A stretch of DNA of 64,000 nucleotides, taken from NCBI GenBank assembly GCA_965220505.1, contig CBDCQE010000001.1, positions 1,411,692 through 1,475,691 on the forward strand, in the 5' to 3' direction. Shown piece after piece: positions 957 through 15,979 of the stretch. The DNA is from Dehalococcoidia bacterium (GTDB taxonomy: Bacteria > Chloroflexota > Dehalococcoidia > Lucifugimonadales > UBA3495). The position numbers and the translations under genes were made by a program. The notes beneath the pieces are model-generated. The model ran no database searches and had not been told where the DNA came from. It saw nothing but the letters and a program-made list of their open reading frames with translations. The stretch's first letter is position 1. Each line of letters opens with the position of its first letter.

Positions 957-1868
957 ATGGCTGAGTACACGTTGGGAACGGCTTCGGTGCTGGCGCCGGG
1001 GACCTGCGGCGAACTGGTGCAGGGGATGACCGGGGACGTGGACTTCCTGGTGACCTGCCCGATCAACCAATTCTCGCGAGCGACGGTCACTGTCTCCAGC
1101 GCGGATCAGCCCGGCGAGCATGTACGAGGAATAGACCACCTGCCGAAAACGCGTCAGGCCGTGGTTGACACGTTGGCACGACTCAGCCGCTGCCTCGGAA
1201 TGCCCGGCATCGTTGCCGACGTCACGGTGGCCAACCCGATGCCGGTGGGCAAAGGGATGGGCAGCAGCAGCGCGGACATCACGGCCGCGGTGTGCGCGAC
1301 CGGCAAGGCCGTGGGCATCGATTTTTCGCCGGATGCGGTGGCAAAGATCGCGCTGGGGGTGGAGCCGACCGACGGCGTGATGTTTCCCGGCATCGCCATG
1401 TTCGATCACCGTCGCGGCAGAGTCCTCGAACTCCTGGGCGCTCCTCCTCCGATGGAGGTGATAGTCATAGACCGCGGCGGTCAGGTGGACACGCTGGAGT
1501 TCAACCGGATCGACCGCGGGGAGCATTGGCGGTCGCTCGCCGATGCCACCACCGAGGCCCTGGAGTTGGTGCGAGAAGGCATCCGCCGGTGCGACCCTGA
1601 ACTGGTGGGCCGGGGCGCCACCGTCTCGGCGCAAGTAGGGCGGCCGGATGACGCCGGCCCGTGGGTGGAAAAGGCGTCAGACTTCGCGGCTGAAATCGGA
1701 GCCGTGGGCGTCAACGTGGCCCACAGCGGGACCGTGGTCGGCATCCTGCTGGACGCGCGGAAACGGCAGAGCAAGCCGGCATTCAGGGAGGCACAAAGGG
1801 AGTTTGTGGCCGCGGAGAGCGTGCACCACTTCCGGATTGTTGGCGGCGGGGTGCGCCAGGCAGTTTAG
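957..1868 (+). CDS. pduX: GHMP-family L-threonine kinase (PduX-like), cobalamin aminopropanol-phosphate supply
   Basis: PGTCGELVQG, PVGKGMGSSSAD GHMP ATP loop, GVNVAHSGTVVG; cob operon context. Confidence 0.85.
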   Translation: MAEYTLGTASVLAPGTCGELVQGMTGDVDFLVTCPINQFSRATVTVSSADQPGEHVRGIDHLPKTRQAVVDTLARLSRCLGMPGIVADVTVANPMPVGKGMGSSSADITAAVCATGKAVGIDFSPDAVAKIALGVEPTDGVMFPGIAMFDHRRGRVLELLGAPPPMEVIVIDRGGQVDTLEFNRIDRGEHWRSLADATTEALELVREGIRRCDPELVGRGATVSAQVGRPDDAGPWVEKASDFAAEIGAVGVNVAHSGTVVGILLDARKRQSKPAFREAQREFVAAESVHHFRIVGGGVRQAV

Positions 1869-2269
1869 AACAATTCCTGTAACGCTTGTTCCGGCGTGAT
1901 GGCCGGGATTGGGGAGTTGGCGAAATCTCTGGCGTCCCGGGTGACGATATACCTGACTCTGGCGGCTCGGGCGGCGGCAACCTGCATGGCGTCCTCGAAA
2001 TCAGCCATCGGCAGGGATAGCGCGTAGCGGAGCTCTTCGTGGCCGGTAGATACGACGGTCAGAAAGGCGGCCAGCCGCACCACAAAAGCGCGGGCTGTGG
2101 CTCTGTCGGTTTCACGCGCCACCAGGAAATGGAATGTCGCTACAGAATGCCAGGCGACGAAAGCGCTTGCTGAAGTCTGCTCGATCCGATTGAGTAGTTC
2201 CTCGGCTGCCAGCGCGAAGTCTTCCCGGTCGAGCGCAAAATCTACCAGCACGTTATTGTCAATCAACAC
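1865..2269 (-). CDS. PIN-domain (VapC-like) ribonuclease toxin
   Basis: LIDNNVLVD...DFEDAMQVAAA...IVTRDARDF acidic PIN motifs, 134 aa; GTG start overlaps the upstream stop by 11 nt. Confidence 0.88.
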   Translation of the reverse strand: MLIDNNVLVDFALDREDFALAAEELLNRIEQTSASAFVAWHSVATFHFLVARETDRATARAFVVRLAAFLTVVSTGHEELRYALSLPMADFEDAMQVAAARAARVRYIVTRDARDFANSPIPAITPEQALQELF

Positions 2270-3281
2270 GAAAATACTTGGCCTTTAGGTATTCGTGGCG
2301 CAGCTCGTCAAGGTATTGGTCGTCGATCTGACGGTCTGCGGGTGGCGTGATACGGAATTTACCGCGCCACCGAGTACCGAAGGGAAGAGGCTCCTCGCCA
2401 TACCGCCGTCGCCAGTAGAACAGGTATTGGTTGGCGTAGCCGGCGTATTCTCCAAACATCTGTTGAGCGCGTTGCGATGCCGCGGCCAATTCTTGTCCTC
2501 TTGGATCCTCTCTTTCCGGGAAGCCCCATTCGGGGTAGGCTTCGGTGATGGCGCGCCAGACCCACCGGTCCACCGGAAACGCTTCCAGCTTGTCCAGGGA
2601 GAAGAGGGCGATGCGGTCGGCGATTTTGTCGGAGACGCCCGCAAACTGCAGCAGGCTAATCCTGACGTCGGGGTAGGGCTGTAGACGCAAATCATTCCAA
2701 TCAATTTCACCGGCGTCCACTTGCTTGGCGATTGCATTCAAGTCCCAGGCCAACCGTGAGCCTAACAACCACTTCCAGGATAAATGCGCCAGCCTATGAT
2801 CGGACTCCACTTGCCTTGGCGTAGGGAACGTGTAACGAATATCTTCCCCCAGGCGCAGTTCCGTTCCTATGAGTTTCGCAGCGTGCTCTAGCGAGTCCCC
2901 AATGTATTCAACATCGGTACGCTCGGCGCAAAACTGCGCCGCCAGACATTCCCAGGGGTCCTGACGCAGCAGGCGCAAGCCCGGAAACTCACGCATGATC
3001 GTGGACACTTTCGGGTCGCGGGCGATACTGGCGTAGATGACGTCGATATCATCGTCCAACCGGAGATAGCGGCGCAGGCATTCGTCAGGGTCGTCCACGT
3101 GCCCCGGCAAGCTGGCGGTTTCGTACTCAATTCCCCCGTCAAACTGCCGGACGTGAAACAGGTGCGGCCCCACCACGCCGGAAAACCAGCCGTCGCCAAA
3201 GGGACGCCAGCGAAACGCTTGGCCCATGGTAAGAGTGAGGGACAGGTTGAACCGGTTAGGAATGGGGAGTTGGCGCGTCAT
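2259..3281 (-). CDS. OGG1-type HhH-GPD DNA glycosylase paralog c with ~46-aa antitoxin-like C-terminal extension
   Basis: GQAFRW, LRLLRQDPWECL, GVSDKIAD (Lys), FPVD (Asp), GYANQYLF; extra tail FGTRWRGKF...YLKAKY absent from the other two paralogs. Confidence 0.85.
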   Translation of the reverse strand: MTRQLPIPNRFNLSLTLTMGQAFRWRPFGDGWFSGVVGPHLFHVRQFDGGIEYETASLPGHVDDPDECLRRYLRLDDDIDVIYASIARDPKVSTIMREFPGLRLLRQDPWECLAAQFCAERTDVEYIGDSLEHAAKLIGTELRLGEDIRYTFPTPRQVESDHRLAHLSWKWLLGSRLAWDLNAIAKQVDAGEIDWNDLRLQPYPDVRISLLQFAGVSDKIADRIALFSLDKLEAFPVDRWVWRAITEAYPEWGFPEREDPRGQELAAASQRAQQMFGEYAGYANQYLFYWRRRYGEEPLPFGTRWRGKFRITPPADRQIDDQYLDELRHEYLKAKYFRVD

Positions 3282-3314
3282 AGCAAGCTTGGCCCCCGCG
3301 TCCGCTGTGGCTAT

Positions 3315-4226
3315 TCATTTAGGCTGGTCACAGAACATGAACTGACCGGCGTAGCCGGCATACTGGCCAAACGTGCCCTGGGCCCACAACCTGATCGCCG
3401 CGTCATTTTTCGGCGCAGCGGGGTAATTTTGGGTCACGAAGCTCCGTATGTGCCTATCAATAGGGAAAGCCTCGGTTTTGTCCAGCGAAAACAGTGAAAT
3501 GCAGTCGGCGATTTTGTCGCCTATGCCCTCCAGCCGTTTAACCGCCCGTTTGGCGTGAGGGTAGGACTCGCTCCGCAGTGCATACAGGTTCAAGTCGCCA
3601 TTGCACACTTCGCGCGCCGCCCCGGCGATTTTCCGGTCGCGTTGGAGACCGAACTGCATCCCCTGGAGGCTCGCGGCTGCGGTTTCCGTTATCAGAAGTT
3701 CGGGTGCCGGGAAAGTGTGACGCGCTTTGCCGCACATTTCAATGGTGTCGCCAAACGCTGCGGAGATGCGTTCGACGATGCTTGAAATACGGGGGATGTT
3801 GTTGTTGGCAGAGCACAAGTAGGCAACGGTGCATTCCCACGGGTCCTGACGCAGCAAACGCATGCCACCGTAGTTTTCGATTAGCCTGGCAATGCTGGCG
3901 TCGCGGTTGGTCAGATCGCTGTAGATGCGCGAAACATCGTCATCCAACCTGAAGTAGCCTTGCAGCAGTGTCCGAACGTCCTCGTCGTCAGCCGGTCCAC
4001 CGAATTTAGACGCGCGGTATTCGACGCGCGAACCGACCTGGCGCAAATGGATCAGAAAACTCCCGAGCACTCCGGAGTGCCACTCGCTGTCTGGATGGCG
4101 CCCACCATCTTCCAATTTGTCCACGCTGCCGTCCAACTTGCGCCACCGAAACGCTTGCCCCATATACAAAGTTAGCCTGAGGCTGAAGGGCTGGGGGATT
4201 TCCAGTTCACCTTCAACAATGTTCAT
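3315..4226 (-). CDS. OGG1-type 8-oxoguanine DNA glycosylase paralog b
   Basis: GQAFRW, MRLLRQDPWEC, CSANNNIPRI, GIGDKIADC, FPIDRH, GYAGQFMF; start placed at ATG 4226 behind GGAGG. Confidence 0.9.
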   Translation of the reverse strand: MNIVEGELEIPQPFSLRLTLYMGQAFRWRKLDGSVDKLEDGGRHPDSEWHSGVLGSFLIHLRQVGSRVEYRASKFGGPADDEDVRTLLQGYFRLDDDVSRIYSDLTNRDASIARLIENYGGMRLLRQDPWECTVAYLCSANNNIPRISSIVERISAAFGDTIEMCGKARHTFPAPELLITETAAASLQGMQFGLQRDRKIAGAAREVCNGDLNLYALRSESYPHAKRAVKRLEGIGDKIADCISLFSLDKTEAFPIDRHIRSFVTQNYPAAPKNDAAIRLWAQGTFGQYAGYAGQFMFCDQPK

Positions 4227-4284
4227 CTCACAACCTCCACAGTGGAATCGCTCGGATCTGTAGCGTTCAGAGAAGTGTGGGCAG

Positions 4285-5166
4285 TCACCGCCCCTCCCGC
4301 CGCCGGCCATGGAAAAGGTACTGCTGGGAATAGCCCGCGTATTGGCCGAAGTGGTCCTGGGCCCACTCCACCATCACCCGGTCGGGCGGCTTTTTCTGCA
4401 TGGGGAAATACCATTCAGCCAGGGCGCGGCGCACCCACACGTCCACGGGAAACGCCTGTAGCTTTTCCAACGAGAATACCGCGATGCAGTCGGCGATCTT
4501 GGCCCCGATGCCGTAGCACTCCATGAGCCGGGACTTGGTTTCGGGATAGGGCATCCGGACCAGTTCGTCCAGGTCCAGTTCGCCGTTGCAGACACGTCGA
4601 GCCGCCGCGACTACATAGGGAGCGCGGAACCCCAGGCCCAGTTCACGCAGGAACCCTTCCCCGGCGGAGGCCAGTTGCTCGGCGGACGCGAAGGTGTGCC
4701 GCACCTCCCCGTCCAGCTCCAGCGGGTCGCCCAGGCTGTCGGCCATGGCCTCCATGTTCTGGTGGATGCGGGGGATGTTTGACGTGGCGGAGCAGATGAA
4801 CGCGACCGTACACTCCCAGGGTTCCTGGCGCAAAATCCGCAGGCCCGGGTAACGAGCAACCATTTCCGCGACGCGCCGGTCTCGGCAAATGTCAGCGTAT
4901 ATCGCGCCGATGTCGTCGTCGAGACGGAAATAAGACCGTAGCAAGTCCGGCAGGGCGGCCGTGTCCACGGCATTGCCAGGGCCGGCGGCGCGATATTCCA
5001 CCCCTGCTGCCACCTGTCGGATGTGAATGAGCCACTGGCCCAACACGCCCGAATACCAGCCGTCCCCCAGATTCTTCCAGCGGTGGGCCTGCCCACTCTC
5101 GAGGCTCTCCGCCAGGTCAAAGGGCTGGTCTATTGCCAGTTGCACCGTCCGTTCCAGCGCCGCCAA
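4285..5166 (-). CDS. OGG1-type 8-oxoguanine DNA glycosylase paralog a
   Basis: SGQAHRW, LRILRQEPWEC, CSATSNIPRI, GIGAKIADC, FPVDVW, GYSQQYLF; GGAGGTG RBS. Confidence 0.9.
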   Translation of the reverse strand: MAALERTVQLAIDQPFDLAESLESGQAHRWKNLGDGWYSGVLGQWLIHIRQVAAGVEYRAAGPGNAVDTAALPDLLRSYFRLDDDIGAIYADICRDRRVAEMVARYPGLRILRQEPWECTVAFICSATSNIPRIHQNMEAMADSLGDPLELDGEVRHTFASAEQLASAGEGFLRELGLGFRAPYVVAAARRVCNGELDLDELVRMPYPETKSRLMECYGIGAKIADCIAVFSLEKLQAFPVDVWVRRALAEWYFPMQKKPPDRVMVEWAQDHFGQYAGYSQQYLFHGRRREGR

Positions 5167-5192
5167 CCCCTCACCTCCCTTGGAGACGCCGA

Positions 5193-8036
5193 CTATCCGG
5201 TTCGAGGACGGTCGAGTTGCAGCCAGCGGGCCGCCTGCTCGCCAACGGTGTTGACGCTGGAGCGTTCGACCGTGCAGGGGGGCAGCGCGTTCAGGAAGCG
5301 GTCACCGTAGTTGGCGGTCTGGATGCGACGGTCCAGGATGACCACGGCCCCCCGATCCACCTTGTTGCGGATCAGCCGGCCGAACCCCTGGCGGAAACGG
5401 AGGACGGCGGAAGGCACCTGGTACTCGTTAAACGGGTTGTTGAACAGGTTCCCTCGGGCCTTGACGATGGGATCGGTAGGCACCGGGAAAGGCAGGCGGC
5501 ACAGCAGCAGCCCGCGCAGGATGCCCGACTCCATGTCGACACCCTCCCAGAAACTGGCGGTGCCGAGCAGTACGGCGCGCGGGTCGGCGTGCAGCCGGTC
5601 AACCAGTTGTCGCGGCGTGCCGTCGATCCCCTGGGCCAGGACGTTGATGCCCGACGCGCGCAACGGCCCCCGCACGTGGAAGGAAGCGTCTCGCAGCGCA
5701 CTGTGGGAAGTGAACAGCGCCATGACGTGTCCGTCCAATGCCCGCGCCATGTTGAGGATCACCTGGGCCGTCCCACGGGCGTGATCGGCGCCGCGACGCG
5801 GGTCGGGGAGGTCATCGGGCACCATGAGCAGGGTATTGCGCCGGTAGTTGAACGGGCTATCGACCAGCAGTTCGTCGCAGTCGTCGGGGAAGCCGAGGCG
5901 TTGCCGCAGGAAACCAAAGTTGCTGTCCGTAGCCAGGGTTGCGCTGGTCAAAACCACGGTCTCTTTCTGCTGGAACAGCATCTCAGACAGGATGGGGCCG
6001 ACCGACAACGGGGTGGAGTGCAGCGTGATGTTGCGCCGCACCATGTCGATCCATTGGATCTGTTCCTCATCATAGCGACCGAAGACGGATGCCAGACGGT
6101 CGTTGAACTCGGAGACCGTGTCTACCGCGCTGATCAGTTCGTTTCCCTGGCTGTCGTCGGAGAGATCGAATATCCCCTGGTCCACCAGCCTCCAGACGTC
6201 GTTCAGGCGGTTCACGCTGTCGGCCATAAAGGTCGAGAACGATTCCCATTCGCGGGCGGCCGCGCCCCATTCCCTGCTCTGCCGCACCGAGGGCTCCAGG
6301 GAGACCGGCTGACGGTCATTGTCGCCGCGGGTGTGCGATTGATAGAGGCTGGTGATCGCGGCCCACAACTGTTGCCACGCCTGCAGGGCCTGGTTGCAAC
6401 TGGCCGTGGCGTTGGTGAGGGCGTCACGAGCTCGCCCGAGGTTTTCGTCCTCCGGCGACTGGTTGGCAATGGAGGTCAGGTGCCGGAACAAGCGGTAAAC
6501 GGCGTCCATTTCCTGGGCCAGATCGTCCTCGGCCATCTCAAAACCTAACTGCCGGCTTGCCTCTTCCTCCAGGTGGTGGGCTTCGTCGACTATGAGGTGT
6601 TGGTAGTCCTGCAACACGGTGCCGCCGACGGCAAGGTCCGCCAGCAGCAGGGCGTGGTTCACCACCAGGATGTTGGCCGCCTCGGCTCGCTGGCGGGCCT
6701 GGCGCAGGAAGCAGGGCGCGCCGCCGCGGAACGACTGGCACACGCCCTGGTTGTCGGCGCACACCCGCAACCAGGCTCGATGGTCTCCAAAGTTCAGGTT
6801 GAGGTCGGTTCGGTCGCCGTTCTGCGTGTCGTCCAGCCAGACTGCCGTTTTCCCGAGAACCCTGGCCTCATCCTCAGTCAAGGTGTCCGACGCGCCCAGG
6901 CTGGCCCATCGGCGGAGGCACACGTAATTGGATCGACCTTTGAGTTGAGCCGCTCGAACGGCCCCCGGTTCCAGTATGCCGGCCTCTTCCAGGATGGAGA
7001 TAACCGCCGGTATGTCCTTATCCATCAACTGCTCCTGCAAGCTGATGGTGTTGGTGGAGATCACCACCCGGTGCCCATGAGTGGCGGAGTAAAGAACCGC
7101 CGGGAGCAGATAGGCGATGCTCTTGCCGATACCGGTGCCACCTTCAACGATGAGCTTTCTGCCCTGATAGATGGCGCGGGTGACGGCCTTCAGCATCTCG
7201 GCCTGTTGGGGCCTGTTTTCAAATCCGGGGAACGAGTTGGCGAACACGCCGTGGGGGGCCAGAAGGTCCTCCACCTGCTGCTCGGTGAGCTCGCGTCGTA
7301 TGGCCTTGCCGTTTTGGTCGCCGGCCTCGCTGGACAGTCTCCGGGCCAGGCTGTCCAGGTTCAATCCATTGAGGCCGACGGCGCCGGGGGTCCCGGGTGC
7401 CGCGTTGGCGCCGGGAGCGTGGGGCACAAGCGCTTCGAGCAAGTCGGCCACGGAGGCATTGGCGGCACGGGCGGAGCGGGCAATAAACGCAACCTTTGCC
7501 GCCGGGTAGGACGCACCCAGCTTCAGCAGATGATGGAACACCAGCGCGGTGGTTTCGGCGTCGGCCACAGCGCGATGAGCCTGGTTGTGGTCCAAGCCCA
7601 GGTGCCTGGCGAGGGCGCTGAGATTGTATTCCGGCAGGGTGGGAAGGAATATCGACGCCAGGTCCCAGGTGTTGTAACTCCGGTTCGTGAGGTGCAGCCC
7701 GTGGGATGACAGGAATGACAGGTCGAAGGCGATGTTGTGCCCGACGATGGGCAGGTCGCCAACGAACGTGGCGAACTGTGCTGCGATTTGTTGGAATCGC
7801 GGCGCCCGTTCGATTTGCGCTGGGCTGATGGACGTCAGTTGCTGGATGAAAGTGGGTATTTGACGGCCCGGGTTGACGAACGTTTGGTACCGGTCGGACA
7901 CCTCACCACCACGAAACTTGACGGCTCCTACTTCGATAATGGCATCGGAATGCGCATTCAGACCGGTGGTCTCCAGGTCCACGCACACGAATTCGCGCTC
8001 GAATATGTCGCTTTGAGGCAGCAGCGTCGGCGTCAT
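5193..8036 (-). CDS. dinG: DnaQ-like 3'-5' exonuclease / DinG-family helicase fusion
   Basis: N-terminal DLETTG..HNIAFD..HRAVADA (DEDDh); GGTGIGKS, four Cys of the Fe-S region, DEAH, GTASFWEGVD, QGFGRLIR. Confidence 0.93.
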   Translation of the reverse strand: MTPTLLPQSDIFEREFVCVDLETTGLNAHSDAIIEVGAVKFRGGEVSDRYQTFVNPGRQIPTFIQQLTSISPAQIERAPRFQQIAAQFATFVGDLPIVGHNIAFDLSFLSSHGLHLTNRSYNTWDLASIFLPTLPEYNLSALARHLGLDHNQAHRAVADAETTALVFHHLLKLGASYPAAKVAFIARSARAANASVADLLEALVPHAPGANAAPGTPGAVGLNGLNLDSLARRLSSEAGDQNGKAIRRELTEQQVEDLLAPHGVFANSFPGFENRPQQAEMLKAVTRAIYQGRKLIVEGGTGIGKSIAYLLPAVLYSATHGHRVVISTNTISLQEQLMDKDIPAVISILEEAGILEPGAVRAAQLKGRSNYVCLRRWASLGASDTLTEDEARVLGKTAVWLDDTQNGDRTDLNLNFGDHRAWLRVCADNQGVCQSFRGGAPCFLRQARQRAEAANILVVNHALLLADLAVGGTVLQDYQHLIVDEAHHLEEEASRQLGFEMAEDDLAQEMDAVYRLFRHLTSIANQSPEDENLGRARDALTNATASCNQALQAWQQLWAAITSLYQSHTRGDNDRQPVSLEPSVRQSREWGAAAREWESFSTFMADSVNRLNDVWRLVDQGIFDLSDDSQGNELISAVDTVSEFNDRLASVFGRYDEEQIQWIDMVRRNITLHSTPLSVGPILSEMLFQQKETVVLTSATLATDSNFGFLRQRLGFPDDCDELLVDSPFNYRRNTLLMVPDDLPDPRRGADHARGTAQVILNMARALDGHVMALFTSHSALRDASFHVRGPLRASGINVLAQGIDGTPRQLVDRLHADPRAVLLGTASFWEGVDMESGILRGLLLCRLPFPVPTDPIVKARGNLFNNPFNEYQVPSAVLRFRQGFGRLIRNKVDRGAVVILDRRIQTANYGDRFLNALPPCTVERSSVNTVGEQAARWLQLDRPRTG

Positions 8037-8068
8037 CGCGATGAATTACACTCGAAGCGGAACCGCAC

Positions 8069-8773
8069 TTACGCCGAGCGCAGGCGGTACGGCCGCAAGG
8101 ATCCCTGCCGCAGCCCTTCCAGCGGGCGGAAGTCCCGGCGATGCAGCGCCGTGAGGAACTGGGCCTCGTCAAAGACTTCATCGGGGAATTCGGTCACGAA
8201 TTTGCCCAGCCCGTGGGTGCTGTGAGCGTCGCTGCCCCCGGTCACCGGCAGGCTCAGCCGGTGGGCGACCTCGGCGGCGAAGCGGTTTTCCTCGTCCGAC
8301 GTGCCGCCGTTGGCAACCTCGATGGCGTCGGCCAGTTGGAACACCGGATGCGTCATCGCCGTTTCCGCGTCCTGCGGGATCGGCTCGTCAGGGTCCGGAT
8401 ACAGGTACGGTCGGGTCCGGTGGTGCTGTCCCAATACGCCGCGGAAGGGGTGCGCCGACACGACGAAGCCGCCGGCGGCGTGGGCAGCCTTGCTCAGCTC
8501 CTCGGCGCGGTGGAACCCGCTCTGGTACCGGTCCACGCCGAAAGCCAGGATGTGACCCATATCGGTGTCGGCTTCCATGGCGCGAATGAGCACGACGTTG
8601 TGCCGGGCGGCGAAGGCGGCGAATTCGTGCCGGTCCCAGGGGCCGGCGTGTTCGGTGATGCACAGGCCGCGCAATCCCAGACGTTCGGCCTCAAGGATGA
8701 GATCTTCGGGCGTCAGGCTGGAATCGGCGCTGCCTTTGGTCGTATGGATGTGTAAGTCAAAAATCCGTGACAT
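8069..8773 (-). CDS. PHP-domain metal-dependent phosphoesterase
   Basis: DLHIHTT, ITEH, HILAFG, SAHPF, GGSDAHS; start placed at ATG 8773. Confidence 0.85.
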   Translation of the reverse strand: MSRIFDLHIHTTKGSADSSLTPEDLILEAERLGLRGLCITEHAGPWDRHEFAAFAARHNVVLIRAMEADTDMGHILAFGVDRYQSGFHRAEELSKAAHAAGGFVVSAHPFRGVLGQHHRTRPYLYPDPDEPIPQDAETAMTHPVFQLADAIEVANGGTSDEENRFAAEVAHRLSLPVTGGSDAHSTHGLGKFVTEFPDEVFDEAQFLTALHRRDFRPLEGLRQGSLRPYRLRSA

Positions 8774-8911
8774 AAGCCCTACCAGTCTATGCGTAGCCCG
8801 GAACGGCGTCAACGCCGGCGCAGCCTCACGCGTACCCGGTTGGCGGCGGGGGAGCGATTGGCATGGATGCACGGGATAAACGGGATGATTCCAGATTGGG
8901 CTTGGGGAGTT

Positions 8912-9021
8912 GTCAGAAGCGGGATTTGCGGGGTTTTGTGATTGGGCGGGATTGGGAGGGTTTCATCGGGGGACGGTCCCAATCCTGGTAATCCTCAAAT
9001 CTTGAAAATCCTGCTTCTGAC
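8912..9021. repeat. 110-bp imperfect palindrome (GGGATT/AATCC-rich) in the divergent intergenic region
   Basis: gtcagaagcgggattt (8912-8927) pairs with aaatcctgcttctgac (9006-9021), 15/16; inner gggattggga/tcccaatcct arms. Confidence 0.75.
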
Positions 9022-9156
9022 GGTTCCGGGCCGGACGCCGGCGGCTGGGCGGGTGGTTGGGGCTCAAATGGGGGAATTGGGCGAAATTGGGGTGAGGTTA
9101 TGGATATGTGATCATAAACTCGCAGCGGATTGTGTTCCGGTCATGCAGTTTTGCGG

Positions 9157-9236
9157 TATAGTACGCGCCGAGTTACGGCGACGAGACACTGCCGAGGCTC
9201 GGGCCACCCGAATTGAACGCGAGGTAGATGACGATG
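9157..9236 (+). promoter_or_regulatory. Putative -10 (TATAGT), RBS (GAGGT) and start ATG of the giant surface-protein gene
   Basis: TATAGT 9157-9162; GAGGT 9221-9225; ATG 9234; no convincing -35 element. Confidence 0.45.
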
Positions 9237-12200
9237 AACAGCAGCGGCCTTCGCAACAGACGTTCTCGCCCCCTGATCCGCGGGGGGGGGGGGGGAAGAA
9301 AGCTCTAAGATGGCCCCTGCTGCCCCTGGCCGGCGTGCTGGCCCTGGCCCTGCTGGCGGTGTTCGTCGCCATGCCGGAGCGGACCGCGCGGGCCAACCAC
9401 AACCCCCCGGCGCCCACCAACCTCCAGTTGGATGGGGCTGTCACCGATACCGCGATCCGAATCAGGTGGAATGCCCCGTCGGATACGACCAACGTCTCCT
9501 GGTACCGCATGGACATTCGGACCAGCCCGTCCGGAAGCTGGGGCAAAGTCTTCTCGAAACAAGCTTCTTTTCCCCGCACCCACACCTTCACGGGACTTCA
9601 GAGCGGTACCGCCTACGACGCACGGGTTCGTTCATGCTATAGCGATAGCGTCAGTCACTGCGGCCAAGGCGTCCAGATTACCGCATCTACGGCCTCGGCT
9701 ACTTTCTCCATAGCCAACACACAAACTGCGGCGCAGGGACTAAACCAAAGTAACATCGACACGAATTACAGGTTGGCCTTGGCCGGCACCACAGTGTCCT
9801 GCTCCGGCTCCGGATTCACTGCTTGTAACAGCCACCTCGAAATCGTCACCAACCCGACGACGGCGGGGCTGAGCATCCTCCGATCCTTACCCGATGGTAA
9901 TGGGATCGCGGTAATAATCAACAAGGACAGCGACTTCGGCCCCTCGCAGGGCTTCACGGTGGCGCTCAAGCTCAAGGCCTCGGGCCACACCGGCACCTAC
10001 GACATCACCTCCAACGCGCTGAGCGTGACGGTCTTAAAACAGCCCGACTCGCCCACGAACCTGAGATTCACCAACACAGGCTCGCCCAACTCGGTCACGT
10101 TCCAGTGGGACCCGCCCAGCGACACCAGCGGCGGCAAGGTCGTGACGGGCTACGACTACCGCTACCGGGTGACCGATCCGGACCAGGGCGCCGGCGACAA
10201 CTGGACCTATCGCAACACCACCGTCACGAGCGCCAACGTCACCAACCTGATGCCGGCCACCGAGTACGACTTCTCGGTGCGCGCCAAGAACGCGCTCAAC
10301 TCGAGCGCTTACGCCACGGCTGTGACGCATACGACGGCCGTGGACCCGGCGGGGCCGCCGGGCAAGCCCACTAATCCGAGGGGAACCGCACTATCCTCCA
10401 CCGAGATCAGGTTCCAGTGGGACGCGCCCGCCGCCGGCTCGGGTGGAACGTTCGCCTATTACCAGTATGATGTCAAGCTCGCCACCGAGACAAGTTGGGG
10501 GGCGCCCTCTGGAGGAACCCCCAACATCAACACTCGAGAGTTTAGGCCCACTGCCCTGCACCCCGGCACGACCTACGAGTTCCGGGTGCGGGCGTGCAAG
10601 TCGAGCGCAGCGACCAATTGCGGCCCGTGGTCGGACACGGCCAGCGCGACGACGAACTACATCCAGCCGAACGCGCCGCCGAACTTCGCAGCCTCCGCGC
10701 TCAATAACAACAATAACGGCACCGACCGGCTGACCTGGGACCCGCCGACGAACACCGGGATCCAGAATTACCAGGTACAACGGCTACGGGACGGGCAAAC
10801 GACCTGGGAGCAAGCGGTCCAGCTTGCGGCCACGCAGACGCAATACGACTTCGCCAAGGCGTCCGGCACTTCGGGCAGCGCCTACCAATATCGCATGTGG
10901 GCGACGGCCGGCACCTTTGTCGGCGCTATTGCGCCGGCAGTCAAGGTCGCCGGGCAGCCGGGCCAGGTCAGCGACCTTACGGCGACGGCGTCCACCACGG
11001 CGGTGGCGGTGGACCTCGCGTGGACCGCGCCGTCCGACGGCGGCAAGGACCTGACCGGCTACTTGATCCAGTGGCGGGAGGACGAGACCGGCAACTGGAA
11101 TGCACCGCGCGGCGCCGATGGAAGTACGACGGCCCCCGCCGGCGCGACCAGCTTCACCGTCGATTCGAGCCACGGCTTGCAGACCGGCACCGTGTATGAC
11201 TTCCGCATCCGGGCGGACAACCCGGACCGCGGCAGCTTCTTCAGCAACACCGCCCAGGCGGACCAGGCGACGGTGAATATCGGCGCGTCGGTTACGGGCA
11301 CCAGTCCCACCACCCTCAAGGAGGGCAACCTGGACGGGGCGACGCTGACGGTGGACCTGGCCGGCGTGACGTATGCGTCCAGCATTGCCGCGAGCCAGTT
11401 CAGCGTGCGGCGGGCGTCCGACGACGCGGCGATTGCGGGGCTGAGCGTGGCCTCGGTGACGCGCGACGGCAGCAACACGGCGACGCTCACGCTGGCCTAC
11501 GCCTGGACCGACGCGGCGATGACGGCGGACACGGACATCGAGGTCGTGGTCCAGGCCGCCGCCCACTCCGGCGGCAGCGGCCTGGTGACCGGCCCGGTGT
11601 CGGTGGGGCATTTCGCCAGTACGACCGGTTCCCTGCCTTCGACCGCCACCGTGGACGAGGGGGACGACGGCAGCGTCGTGATTACGCTGACGGAGCCGGC
11701 GCCCGAGGCCATTACGATTGAATGGTGGACGGCCCCGGATACGGCTGCAGCGAATGTTGACTATACGCATGTGCCGCAAGCCAGCCCCAACGAGGTGGTC
11801 ATTCCGGCCGGCAGCACGACCAGCGGGCCCTTGCCGCTCTCCACCATCGAGGACACCCTCGACGAGGACGACGAGACGTTCTCCGTGACGGCGGGCTTCA
11901 AAGTGGGCACGCTGGGGAATCTGGCCGGCAAGGCGTTCTTAGATGTGCTGGCCTCACGAACCGTCGTCACCATCACCGACGACGACGACCCGCCGACGCT
12001 GTCGGTGAGTTTGCCCAGCGTCCTGGAGGGCGACAGCGGCACGACGGCGATGCCGTTCACGCTCACGCTCTCGGAGGTGAGCGGGCGGACGGTGACGGTC
12101 GGTTACCAGTTCGGCAACGTTCCCGCCGAATTCGGAGATCCGGTTGAGAACGATGACCTGGTGACCGGAACCGGTACAGTGTCCTTCGCGCCGGGTGAGA

Positions 12201-15200
12201 CGAGCAAGACCGTTACGACCGCCATCATGGTGAACGGGGACACTGTCGTCGAGCCGGACGAAGTCTTCGACCTTGTGTTGAATAGTCCAGGCGGAGGCGC
12301 AATCTTCGTCCGCGACAACTCGCGGCCCGAGTTCCGCGTGCCCTTCGACAGTAATGCCCAGCTCGTCGGCACCATCCGCAACGACGACATCCAGCCGACG
12401 GCCATCGACCTGAGCGTCAGCCCAACCAGCGTCGGCGAGGGGGTGGGCGCGGCCCAGGTCACGATCACCGCGTCCTTCCCGCCGGGCAGCGGCACGCTGG
12501 ATACGGCGACCGACGTAACGGTAGCGGTGGGCGCGGGCGCGGACAGCGCGACCGAGGGCACGGACTACCAGACCGTGGCCTCGGTTCCGATCAGGATCCG
12601 CGCCGGCAATGGGTCGGCGACGGCCACCTTCACCCTCACCCCGACGGACGACACGGCCTCGGAGGGCAACGAGAGCATCTCGATCACCGGCGCCGCGCCG
12701 GGTTTCACCGTCAATCCCGCCACCCTCACCCTGGCAGACAACGACCAGTCGGCGTCCATCTCCAGCCCGTCGTCCCTGACGGAGCGGGGGCTGAACGGGG
12801 CGCAGTTGACGGTGGACCTGGATGAGACGCAGTACGTCTCTTCCCTTGCGCCCAGCGATTTCGGCTTCCAGCCGCCAGGCGCCCTCCGCGATCTTTCCGT
12901 CGCATCGGTCAGCCGGAGGAGCAACACGCGCGCCGTCCTGACGCTGCGGTTCACCGGCGACATCGGCATGGACGTGCAGTTAAGTGTGGTAGTTGACGGC
13001 TCGGCGCATACCAGCAGCGGGTCGCTGACGACGGCTGCGGTCACGCTCACCCAGGCGCCGACGCCGGGTCGGGTTACGGGCTTGGGCGTGACGGGCGGGC
13101 CGGCGAGCCTGACGGTTAGGTGGAACACCGCCTCGAACGCCGACAGGTACAGCGTGTCGTATTGGCCGACGGACAGCCCGGGTGACATCGTCACCAGACG
13201 GGTTGATGGCGGGTCAACGTCCCGTACCAGCATCGGCGGGCTGGATGGCGACACCGAGTACTCGGTGCGAATGGTCGCCACCAGCAACTTTGCCCCCGAC
13301 GGAGCCGCGTCGGACACCGTCTCGGCGACCACGCTGCCGGGCCACGCCATCGTGTCGGCCACCGACCCGTCGCCGCTGACGGAACGCAACCTGGACGGCG
13401 CGACGCTGACGGTGGACCTGCTGCCCGACGTGTACGATCCGTGGGCGCCGCAGTTGGACCGCGCACGGGGATTTGACCGCGCACGGGTCACCGCATCCGG
13501 CGTGCCCGGCGTCACAATTGCCGACGTGACCCGGGTGTCGGACACGCGCATGGTGGTCACGCTGGCCTCCGACGACACCGATTTCGACACCGACCGCCGT
13601 CTTCGGGTGGAGTTCTACTCGGTCCACACCAGCATCGAGACGATCACGGCCGTGGCCGACGTCCAGGCGGTGGTGGAGGCTCCGCCGGGCCGGGTGCGGA
13701 ACGTGCGGGTAGTGGCCGAACCGCAGCGCATCAATGTGACCTGGGACCCGGTGGAGGGCGCCACGGGTTACCGGGTGGAGTGGAGTCCGGCGGCGTCCTA
13801 CGGCTCCTCCTTCCACAAGGAATGGCCCTGGCCCACCCGGTACAGCATGGGGGCGTTGCAGCCGGGCACGGAGTACACGGTGCGTGTGGTGGCGACCAAG
13901 GCGCGGGCGCCGGACGGGCAGCGGTCGGCCGGCGCCCGCGCAACCACGCCGGCGTTTGGCGCAATGCTGACCAGCACCGAGCCGTCGGAGTTGACGGAGG
14001 ACAACCTGAACCGGGCGCGTCTGACGGTGGACCTGATGGGCATCGAGTGGGTGCGCCAGGTGGAGGGCCGGTACTACCGGTTCCAGCTGGGCCGGGTCAA
14101 CGACTGCTCCGAGGCGGCGTACTACGACAACTGCCAGGACTTCATCGTGAACCGCAGCGTCGCGGTTGCCGGCGTGGAGCGGGTCTCCGGCTCGCGGGCG
14201 ATAGTCTCGCTGCGGGCGCGCAACGTGAACCTGGAAGGCAACGGCTTGTGGCTGCGCTTCCCCGACGATATGCACACGCATTACTACGGCGAGGAGGACT
14301 TCATCGTCCTGGAGGTCATCGCGCCCGGTGAGACTGGCCTCAACATGAGGGCCAGCGTCACGGTGGCCGCCGCCGACCCGGTGGCGGTCAACGAGGGCGG
14401 CTCCGCGGCAACCTACACGGTGGTGCTGGACGGCCAGCCGTCGGGCGACGTGACCATCGCGATGAGCAGCGACAACGGCGATGTCACGACGCAACCGGCC
14501 AGGCTCACCTTCACGCCGGACAATTGGGATACGGCGCAGACGGTCAGCGTCCGCGCCGGCCACGACGATGACGCGGCGGACGATGTCGCCACCGTGAGCC
14601 ACGCGGTGAGCGGGGCGCAGGGCTACGCCGGGATTGCGGTGGCGTCGGTGTCGGTCAGCGTAGCCGACGACGACACGGCCGGGGTAACGGTGACACCGAC
14701 CGAACTCAGCGTGAACGAGGGCGAGTCAGCCAGCTACACGGTGGTTCTGGACACGCAGCCCGTCGGCGACGTGGGCATCTTGGTGGTCGCCAGCACCGGC
14801 CTATCGGCGCAGCCGACTGAGTTGACCTTCACGCCCGACAACTGGCGGAACGCGCAGACCGTAACGGTCAGCGCCGCCCAGGACGACGATACGGATGACG
14901 GGACGGCCTGGATCATCCACTCTAGTGGGGCCGGTCCCGATTCCGGGTACGACAGCGTGCCGGTTGGCAACGTAATCGTGGACATAATCGACGACGACGA
15001 ACCGGCGACCCTGCCGGCCCAGCAGGAGCCGGAACCGGAACCCGGCACCGTAACGGTGAGCGCGGCCAGCCTCAGCGTCCGCGAGGGCGGCGACGGCGCG
15101 ACCTACACGGTGTCGCTGGACGTTGAGCCCACGGAGAACGTGGTAATCGCGGTGTCCAGCGACAACGGCGACGTGACCACGCAGCCGTCCAGCCTCACCT

Positions 15201-15979
15201 TCACCGCCGGCAACTGGCAGGCGGCTCAGACGGTAAGCGTCAGCGCCGGGCAGGACGACGATAAGGCGGACGACACGGCCACCCTCAGCCACGCGGCCAG
15301 CGGCGGCAACTACGATGGTGTTGCGGTGGCGTCCGTAGCCGTCAGCGTGACCGACGACGACAGCGACCGGGCGGTGCTGGAGGCGTTCTACGACGCCACG
15401 GGTGGCCATAGCTGGACCAACATCGGCAACTGGCTGAGCGACAAGCCGCTGAACCAGTGGCACGGCGTGACCGCCAACGGATCGGGGCAAGTGACTGGGC
15501 TGTCCCTGCGCGACAACGGCCTGAGCGGGTCCTTGCCCGCTGCGTTGGGCAACCTGGACAGTCTGCAAGTCCTGTCCCTGGACCGGAACAGCATCAGCGG
15601 GTCGCTGCCGTCAGAGTTGGGCAACCTGTCCAACCTGACCCGGCTGGCGATGAACCGCAACAGCCTCAGCGGCGCCATACCGTCGCAGTTGGGCAACCTG
15701 TCCAATTTGAGCATCATCGGCCTGGCGCGGAACAGCCTGAGCGGGTCGCTGCCCAACAGCCTGGGCAACCTGAGCGGGCTGACCAAGGTGTCGCTGCACG
15801 ACAACACGGGACTGAGCGGGGCGCTACCGTCGGGGTTCACCAACCTGGCGAACCTGCAACGGCTGGCCATCGCCAACACGGGGCTGTGTCTCCCGGACAC
15901 GCAGGCGTTCGACGACTGGCTGGCCGGCGTGCCCGACAAACCGGGGATCGACGGGCTGGCGGACTGCGCCTCGCCATAG
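9234..15979 (+). CDS. Giant secreted/surface protein: signal peptide, FN3 repeats, Calx-beta-like domains, unnamed repeats, C-terminal LRR; out of frame from ATG 9234 at G14
   Basis: KKALRWPLLPLAGVLALALLAVFVAMPERTARA signal; FN3 motifs (W..P, Y.VRVRA); EDTLDEDDETF and VEPDEVF Calx-beta-like motifs; 24-aa LGNLSNL..L.L..N.LSG.(L/I)P repeats after 15360. Confidence 0.85.
9282..9295 (+). repeat. G14 homopolymer in the signal-peptide-coding region (contingency-locus-like)
   Basis: 14 consecutive G between the RBS-preceded ATG 9234 and the hydrophobic segment. Confidence 0.9.

Follow-up and report, generated by a model that had tools for sequence, protein, structure and literature searches.

Why should a bacterium carry three OGG1-type DNA glycosylase genes in a row behind an exonuclease-helicase, and do all three serve DNA repair? 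The question is raised by a locus in a 64,000-nucleotide stretch of a SAR202-like Dehalococcoidia metagenome-assembled genome (MAG), hereafter the window (GenBank assembly GCA_965220505.1, contig CBDCQE010000001.1, positions 1,411,692 to 1,475,691 of the forward strand). Six tightly packed open reading frames (ORFs), all on the minus strand at window positions 1865-8770, encode a PHP-family phosphoesterase, a DnaQ-DinG exonuclease-helicase, the glycosylase paralogs OggA, OggB and OggC, and a PIN_3 nuclease. The original prediction named the first five, which are indeed intact, co-oriented genes with gaps of 26-58 nt, and read them as a lesion-diversified base-excision repair (BER) array; both the PIN_3 gene and a 45-residue C-terminal extension of OggC were absent from it. 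By homology, OggC is a chimera of an Ogg domain and the putative toxin-binding tail of a DUF6364/VapB-type antitoxin. We consider it probable that the locus combines a predicted PHP-DinG-OggA repair core with a variable slot that holds OggB and an Ogg-antitoxin/PIN module. The relatives compared below (loci numbered with L, genomes with G) are Dehalococcoidia/SAR202-type MAGs, and the isolate names of several, on which this point depends, suggest that they come from sponge metagenomes.

A DUF6364-like tail at the C-terminus of OggC

OggC (2259-3281, minus strand) is a complete ORF that consists of an Ogg-fold domain (residues 1-295; 2397-3281, minus strand) and a C-terminal tail of 45 residues (residues 296-340; 2262-2396, minus strand). 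A quick maximum-likelihood tree of 96 Ogg homologs from 60-odd loci, rooted at its midpoint and supported by the Shimodaira-Hasegawa-like approximate likelihood ratio test (SH-aLRT), placed OggA in clade A (support 100), OggB in clade B (83) and OggC in clade C (99), in addition to a clade C' (100); clades B, C and C' are joined at 90. All clade C and C' proteins possess a C-terminal extension of 40-50 residues that ends in ...RYEYLxRKYLS or DDPRWVALARKHLS, whereas clade A has no such extension. The tail of the window OggC reads PLPFGTRWRGKFRITPP, followed by an insertion and LRHEYLKAKYF, compared to LLFGTRWRGKFRMPPGDDPRYETLARKYLRC at locus L039.

Relatives of this tail came to light through the neighbouring PIN protein, which has homologs with 46-55% identity in other Chloroflexota families among 401 sampled genomes from this phylum. 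At the eleven closest of the twenty retrieved PIN loci, a protein of 73-77 residues precedes PIN, mostly with a 4-nt overlap. These small proteins have an N-terminal ribbon-helix-helix (RHH) region and a tail with the consensus (A/S)PSFxxRWRGKFRPAERDDPRYxALAKKYL, and Pfam assigned two of them to DUF6364 (PF19891; E-values of 2e-14 and 3e-13), with weak RHH/CcdA matches. The free DUF6364 tail and the Ogg tails share one motif.

This similarity was recovered by a profile built from the eleven free DUF6364 tails only. When the genome of the window was searched as 69,764 six-frame ORFs (stop-to-stop frames of at least 30 amino acids), the OggC tail was the top match (E-value of 2.5e-4, runner-up 0.34), and no free DUF6364 frame was found. 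Applied to the Ogg set, the same profile matched 18 of the 21 clade C proteins and three of the six in C', against one of 29 in clade B, none of 30 in clade A and none of nine in the outgroup, with a best score of 48.8 bits. A second profile (A3), built from the free tails together with three or four short-form Ogg tails, matched small frames in 38 of the 401 phylum genomes and a long frame (351 residues) in this genome only; within the genus it matched frames of 335-592 residues in about 23 of 54 species-level genomes. A word-based tail search of a 5.8-billion-protein set, limited in sensitivity, retrieved 13 long-form relatives, all of which contain OGG_N. The canonical free DUF6364-PIN pair is retained in G002 of the same genus; at this locus (L091, G002:C1:1304500-1309500) the pair at 2381-3060 lies between a two-gene pair at 1499-2126, HigB/HigA-like by eye, and a 253-residue ORF at 3431-4192 that looks exodeoxyribonuclease III-like.

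In the position of the RHH region, OggC has an OGG1 fold, and Pfam found neither an RHH nor a DUF6364 match in the protein. The AlphaFold2 model of OggC, computed from a 20-sequence alignment, has a mean predicted local distance difference test (pLDDT) score of 86.7. Residues 1-295 form a confident OGG1 fold with pLDDT of about 90; the tail scores 43-62 and includes a terminal helix (residues 321-337), which is how a region that gains its fold only upon binding a partner would be expected to look in such a model. Structural similarity search using Foldseek revealed mouse and human OGG1, MBOgg1 and CacOgg as the top matches of the model, with template-modelling (TM) scores of 0.79-0.86.

Coupling of OggC to a PIN_3 nuclease gene

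The PIN_3 (VapC-like) gene (1865-2269, minus strand; PF13470, E-value of 3.8e-16) is single-copy in this genome, and its GTG start overlaps the end of OggC by 11 nt. The same arrangement holds among relatives: PIN lies directly 3' of all 24 clade C/C' loci, overlapping or abutting, including eight away from DinG, and at 22 related loci the two genes overlap by a few nucleotides or abut. PIN follows no clade A or B gene among the related loci, and at the genus loci examined every intact PIN has an OggC upstream. We also weighed whether a small antitoxin ORF might be hidden between the two genes and rejected this, since they overlap and the genome has no DUF6364-like frame elsewhere.

PIN is intact at 22 of the 24 loci and a pseudogene at two, being frameshifted in L035 and interrupted by an in-frame stop in L050, and in both cases OggC and its tail are intact. 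Locus L079 (G070:C1:330200-338400) carries a second, degenerate copy of tail and PIN 1.8 kb from the intact pair, in which the PIN fragment has a TAA stop. Of 42 PIN sequences, both Ogg-linked and free, 95-100% share the acidic residues D4, D90, E92, D93 and D115. Phylogenetic analysis of PIN revealed that the Ogg-linked proteins cluster beside those of the free pairs, and that PIN subclades track the tail variants. Because the Ogg-linked PINs group together in this way, the fusion of Ogg and tail may have had a single origin.

Comparison with the nearest relative, L026, revealed an apparent exchange at the junction of the two genes. Identity is 94.7% over 2916-8821 and 92.5% over 3-2047, but at most 70% across 2047-2916 (a tract, not assigned to a strand, that we interpret as a recombinational cassette swap). 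These 870 bp comprise the HhH-GPD domain of OggC, its tail and the N-terminal half of PIN, and thus the presumed interacting parts would have been exchanged together. Altogether, that the OggC chimera and its coupling to PIN are real and homologous appears to us highly likely.

Catalytic and pocket residues of the three Ogg paralogs

Besides the three paralogs, the 3.88-Mb genome contains no further OGG_N gene; it does encode one Fpg/Nei glycosylase and three other HhH-GPD proteins. OggA (4285-5166, minus strand), OggB (3315-4226, minus strand) and OggC all exceed the 23-bit cut-off of PF07934 OGG_N (E-values of 6.9e-19, 2.5e-19 and 5.1e-20, respectively), and align over their full length to TIGR00588 with 189.5, 163.9 and 119.9 bits, all below its curated cut-off of 397.85. 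Pairwise identity is 46% between OggA and OggB and 44% between OggA and OggC. Sequence search of the Protein Data Bank (PDB) found MBOgg1 (4ejy, E-value of 1.7e-46), CacOgg and human OGG1 (hOGG1) as the closest entries to OggA. The original prediction was right that the paralogs are true OGG1-family members differing at lesion-recognition positions: it quoted the motifs correctly, and OggA, OggB and OggC each retain the catalytic Lys (KIAD) and Asp (FPV/ID).

Residues are numbered as in hOGG1, for which 19 of 19 checked positions gave the expected residue. At the pocket positions G42, C253, Q315 and F319, OggA keeps all four residues, OggB has Q315 replaced by Gly, and OggC has Q315 replaced by Asn and C253 by Arg, in addition to a change of the NNN motif to RTD and of R154 to Tyr. 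The same differences extend to the clades. Clade A is invariant at K249, D268, C253, R154, R204, Q315 and F319, and all clade B members have Gly at the position of Q315. Clade C has Asn or Ser at Q315 and varies in its pocket and estranged-base residues, with changes at C253, the NNN motif (N149), R154, Y203/R204 and the HhH glycine. The catalytic D268 is invariant in every clade (21 of 21 in clade C); K249 is found in all 30 proteins of clade A, all 29 of clade B and all six of clade C', but in only 12 of 21 of clade C, where Glu (four), Arg (four) or Ile (one) replaces it in the other nine.

The conservation pattern of the two domains in clades B and C is inverted relative to clade A, with mean identities in the N-domain and the HhH-GPD domain of 75% and 91% for clade A, 64% and 47% for clade B, and 70% and 53% for clade C. 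The ratio of nonsynonymous to synonymous substitution rates (dN/dS, Nei-Gojobori) for the HhH-GPD domain is 0.04 in clade A, about 0.2 in B and about 0.28 in C, with similar values of 0.17-0.21 for the N-domains, all of them crude because dS is near saturation. The base-binding domain has accordingly evolved 5-7 times faster in clades B and C than in clade A. Taken together, OggA is probably the ordinary bifunctional Ogg of the lineage, a housekeeping 8-oxoguanine (8-oxoG) glycosylase/lyase. OggB is probably an active glycosylase with altered specificity, since every clade B protein has the catalytic Lys and Asp and the pocket is remodelled.

A conserved core and a variable slot among relatives

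Clade A has very short branches, and its members lie directly 3' of DinG in every case. PHP-DinG-OggA is found at every genus locus that contains OggA, PHP lies upstream of DinG at 34 related loci, and Ogg adjoins DinG in other families of the order as well. Since the three genes form a conserved syntenic unit, it would be reasonable to suppose, as the original prediction did, that the OggA glycosylase, the exonuclease-helicase and the phosphoesterase are functionally linked.

By contrast with the universal OggA, the presence of OggB and OggC varies from species to species. The gene order after DinG is A-B-C-PIN at 10 loci, A-C-PIN at six and A-B at 11, and C-PIN forms a separate pair away from DinG at eight. 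Among 37 genomes of the genus, nine have a tandem triplet, six a single copy and most others two copies, so the triplet is a recurrent lineage-specific feature and not an oddity of this genome; in the other families of the order a single copy is usual. Tandem doublets and triplets thus proved common in the genus, as the original prediction had allowed for in considering what would speak against it, but the specificities of their members do not appear to be identical. The gene content and the exchanged tract indicate that the region 3' of OggA is a variable, recombining accessory slot for lineage-specific Ogg paralogs.

The original prediction also held that OggB and OggC look more AT-rich than OggA and DinG, and took this as a sign of later acquisition. 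The composition scan bore out the difference, with GC and GC at third codon positions (GC3) of 0.571 and 0.688 for OggB and 0.584 and 0.683 for OggC, compared to 0.646 and 0.799 for OggA and 0.636 and 0.804 for DinG (genome GC 0.630). The GC3 split runs along the whole row, at 0.67-0.69 for OggB, OggC and PIN versus 0.80-0.83 for PHP, DinG and OggA. Import of OggB and OggC from a distant donor was tried as an explanation and is not supported by the tree. Ogg homologs from other families of the order, many of which also follow DinG, fall outside A, B and C together (SH-aLRT 92, a moderate support under a midpoint root), which points with the same moderate support to lineage-internal paralogs.

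Further observations concern clade B, which is diverse in the tree. At L024 and L033 a gap of about 0.9 kb separates OggA (end at about 6130) from the clade B gene (start at about 7050-7090), compared to 58 nt in the window, which suggests extra inserted content in the slot. The clade B proteins of L048, L055, L057, L059, L062, L053 and L019 have C-termini of 60-100 residues with a Cys-x2-Cys...Cys...His zinc-ribbon followed by an Arg-rich tail; such zinc-finger tails are a borderline match to PF24623 (Phage_zn_bind_8, a putative DNA-binding phage zinc finger), scoring 19.6-24.6 bits where the cut-off is 24. OggB of the window is without this tail and stops right after the Ogg fold, ending in ...FCDQPK. 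The clade B Ogg at L041:7938-9143 carries a degenerate antitoxin-tail motif, KFVGTSVDDPRHRPLSRKYV (8.5 bits with the tail profile), in addition to a zinc finger, and this double tail hints that clade B may stem from a tailed, C-like ancestor.

Gene calls and neighbouring genes

The first gene of the core (8069-8770, minus strand) encodes a predicted PHP-family metallo-phosphoesterase of the CehA/McbA type, with matches to PF02811 and PHP_C (PF13263) and a score of 91 bits against NF038032 (CehA/McbA; cut-off 80). The second (5193-8036, minus strand) encodes a 947-residue protein in which a DnaQ-like 3'-5' exonuclease is fused to a DinG-family helicase, as indicated by RNase_T (E-value of 1e-30), DEAD and Helicase_C_2 (1e-36) domains; it matches PRK08074 with an E-value of 3e-198, yet under the equivalog cut-off. 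The gaps are 32 nt between PHP and DinG, 26 nt between DinG and OggA, 58 nt between OggA and OggB, and 33 nt between OggB and OggC, and the ATG start of OggB is preceded by GGAGG. Just upstream of the PHP start lies a sigma-70-like promoter candidate, TTGACG-17-TAGACT (8784-8812, minus strand), a consensus match only, in a region where two such sites were seen against 1.4 expected from shuffled sequence. No terminator-like site above the shuffled background was found within the gene row.

On the plus strand, a giant repeat-rich ORF of about 2,345 residues (8942-15979) diverges from the PHP gene. At the other end, three plus-strand ORFs (3-1868; 92% identity with L026) converge on the end of the PIN gene; by eye they look cobalamin-related, with a CobQ-like C-terminus, a CobU-like kinase and a GHMP-type kinase.

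Proposed mechanism and alternative explanations

We propose that the locus is built of two layers. The first would be the conserved core PHP-(DnaQ-DinG)-OggA, in which OggA is probably co-transcribed with the exonuclease-helicase and PHP, and the PHP phosphoesterase could trim blocked 3' ends left by the β-lyase. The second would be the variable slot 3' of OggA, with OggB followed by OggC-PIN. In the latter, an Ogg-fold domain would have taken the place of the RHH DNA-binding domain of a DUF6364 antitoxin while the C-terminal tail was kept, and OggC would be translationally coupled to its cognate PIN_3 (VapC-like) nuclease. The tail, an unstructured linker with a terminal helix, would bind and silence PIN in the style of a type II toxin-antitoxin (TA) system, and the Ogg domain would tether the OggC-PIN complex to DNA. 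That PIN is toxic, that the tail neutralises it and that lesion binding is in any way linked to toxin release are all inferred; the first two together seem likely. The Ogg domain could contribute as a DNA tether, as a damage sensor, or as a sensor of foreign modified bases.

Several points weigh against this proposal. Pfam detected no DUF6364 in the isolated Ogg tails, and the long-form tail of the window reaches a modest 22 bits with the tail profile because of its 10-residue insertion. PDB sequence search with PIN gave no significant match, and PADLOC-DB v2 gave none for OggA, OggB, OggC or PIN; for DinG it returned generic DinG and DEDDh models only. The DUF6364-PIN_3 pairs are so far no more than presumed toxin-antitoxin systems, and Pfam lists DUF6364 as a family of unknown function. 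Moreover, the rate estimates are crude, as stated above, and OggC of the window retains both catalytic residues and therefore may still work as a glycosylase.

This last point leads to the reading closest to the original prediction, that all three paralogs are true repair glycosylases with complementary lesion spectra, forming one array with DinG and PHP, and that PIN is a recruited repair nuclease or an unrelated neighbour. OggC-PIN, however, stands alone away from DinG at eight loci, and the nearest relatives of its PIN sit in small-antitoxin/PIN pairs and not in repair operons, even though PIN-like folds do include DNA flap nucleases. The window itself would suit a single array, as OggA, OggB and OggC all keep the catalytic Lys and Asp together with G42 and F319, the genes are close and co-oriented with no terminator-like site between them, and the PHP-DinG-OggA synteny is conserved. 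But nine of the 21 clade C proteins have lost K249, PIN has decayed at loci where OggC is intact, and OggB and OggC come and go between species while OggA is universal, which makes such an array improbable in our view. What stands of the BER-array label covers at most OggA and OggB, because OggC is by homology an antitoxin chimera coupled to PIN, and many of its orthologs are without the catalytic Lys.

Loss of that Lys in part of clade C, the lower GC3 and patchy distribution of OggB and OggC, and the 5-7 times higher amino-acid divergence of their catalytic domains could also be signs of decay. OggB and OggC would then be relaxed duplicates of OggA, and tail and PIN a passenger TA remnant fused by chance deletion. 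Their frames are nevertheless intact in dozens of species-level genomes, dN/dS of about 0.2-0.3 is far under 1, D268, G42, Q43, W47 and F319 hardly vary if at all, and all 29 clade B proteins keep K249. Given further that the tail motif and the PIN overlap are kept clade-wide and that the AlphaFold2 model of OggC has a confident OGG1 fold, we regard decay as very improbable.

The proposed module might do more than hold a toxin in check. As a TA switch, OggC-PIN would use its diversifying pocket to read oxidised or phage-modified bases, and either engagement with DNA or turnover of OggC while bound there would release the VapC-like PIN. Base surveillance would thereby be coupled to growth arrest or abortive infection, with OggB as a free-standing specificity variant. 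We think this switch unlikely, though worth stating. Somewhat less likely still is a dedicated defence or surveillance role, in which a hypervariable pocket senses modified phage bases or heavy oxidative damage, frees PIN and arrests the cell. The base-binding domain is hypervariable and lies in the swapped cassette along with the tail and the N-terminal part of PIN, clade C members can do without the catalytic Lys, and the END nucleases provide a precedent for an inactivated EndoIII/Ogg-like sensor of hypermodified phage DNA (PMC12191111); relaxed constraint, however, explains the faster evolution equally well, no PADLOC model matches, and OggC of the window keeps its catalytic residues.

Comparison with known systems and significance

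The bacterial Ogg1 enzymes of C. acetobutylicum (3f0z/3i0w) and Thermoanaerobacter (MBOgg1, 4ejy) and human OGG1 have the two-domain OGG_N plus HhH-GPD fold in common with the paralogs of the window. OggA matches them with E-values of 1e-41 to 1e-46 and keeps G42, C253, Q315, F319, K249 and D268. They differ in that the window has three paralogs compared to one, and in that the pocket residues are altered in clades B and C. To our knowledge, the 45-residue antitoxin-type tail of OggC is absent from all characterised Oggs.

Type II antitoxins are normally small DNA-binding proteins. With the VapBC-like pairs of DUF6364 (PF19891, RHH) and PIN_3 (PF13470), OggC-PIN shares the antitoxin-first order, the start/stop overlap, a PIN of 46-55% identity, an apparently homologous tail and the early decay of the toxin in some genomes. 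The pairs have an RHH DNA-binding and dimerisation domain of about 40 residues, compared to the 295-residue OGG1-fold domain of OggC. OggC-PIN is hence not a full member of the family, and classical operator-based autoregulation is unlikely to have been retained after this replacement. Antitoxins with a DNA-repair or DNA-modifying enzyme domain, as in OggC, are known from DarTG and other enzymatic antitoxins. DarG neutralises by enzymatic reversal of the DNA modification made by its toxin, whereas OggC would be expected to act through a VapB-type tail, its Ogg domain having no evident relation to the PIN substrate.

Comparison with END nucleases is also instructive. These consist of a PLD nuclease fused to an inactivated EndoIII/Ogg-like domain, proposed to be a sensor of non-canonical bases, and they resemble OggC-PIN in attaching an HhH-GPD/Ogg-like domain with degenerate catalytic residues to a nuclease effector (PMC12191111). 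Their PLD effector is part of the same polypeptide, whereas OggC would hold a separate PIN protein through its antitoxin tail. Unlike in END, the Ogg domain is closely paralogous to the Ogg that the host itself carries, and its catalytic residues are often kept. Open-access papers yielded no description of a glycosylase-antitoxin fusion or of SAR202 Ogg paralog arrays, and NCBI labels one OggC ortholog a 'hypothetical protein'.

The chimera would place a repair glycosylase fold where antitoxins have their DNA-binding module, in a marine, apparently sponge-associated Chloroflexota lineage, where about 23 of 54 species-level genomes of the genus have kept and diversified it. Because homology-based labels make OggC-type proteins plain 8-oxoG glycosylases, the repair capacity of SAR202-type genomes could be overcounted. 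The PHP-(DnaQ-DinG)-Ogg core, in turn, is a candidate for a dedicated oxidative-damage repair operon. If the tail does silence PIN, base surveillance would be physically linked to a growth-arrest toxin, a new coupling of DNA damage or foreign DNA to cell fate, and the paralogs would show in nature how an OGG1 scaffold acquires new base specificities, a point of interest to those who engineer glycosylases and base sensors.

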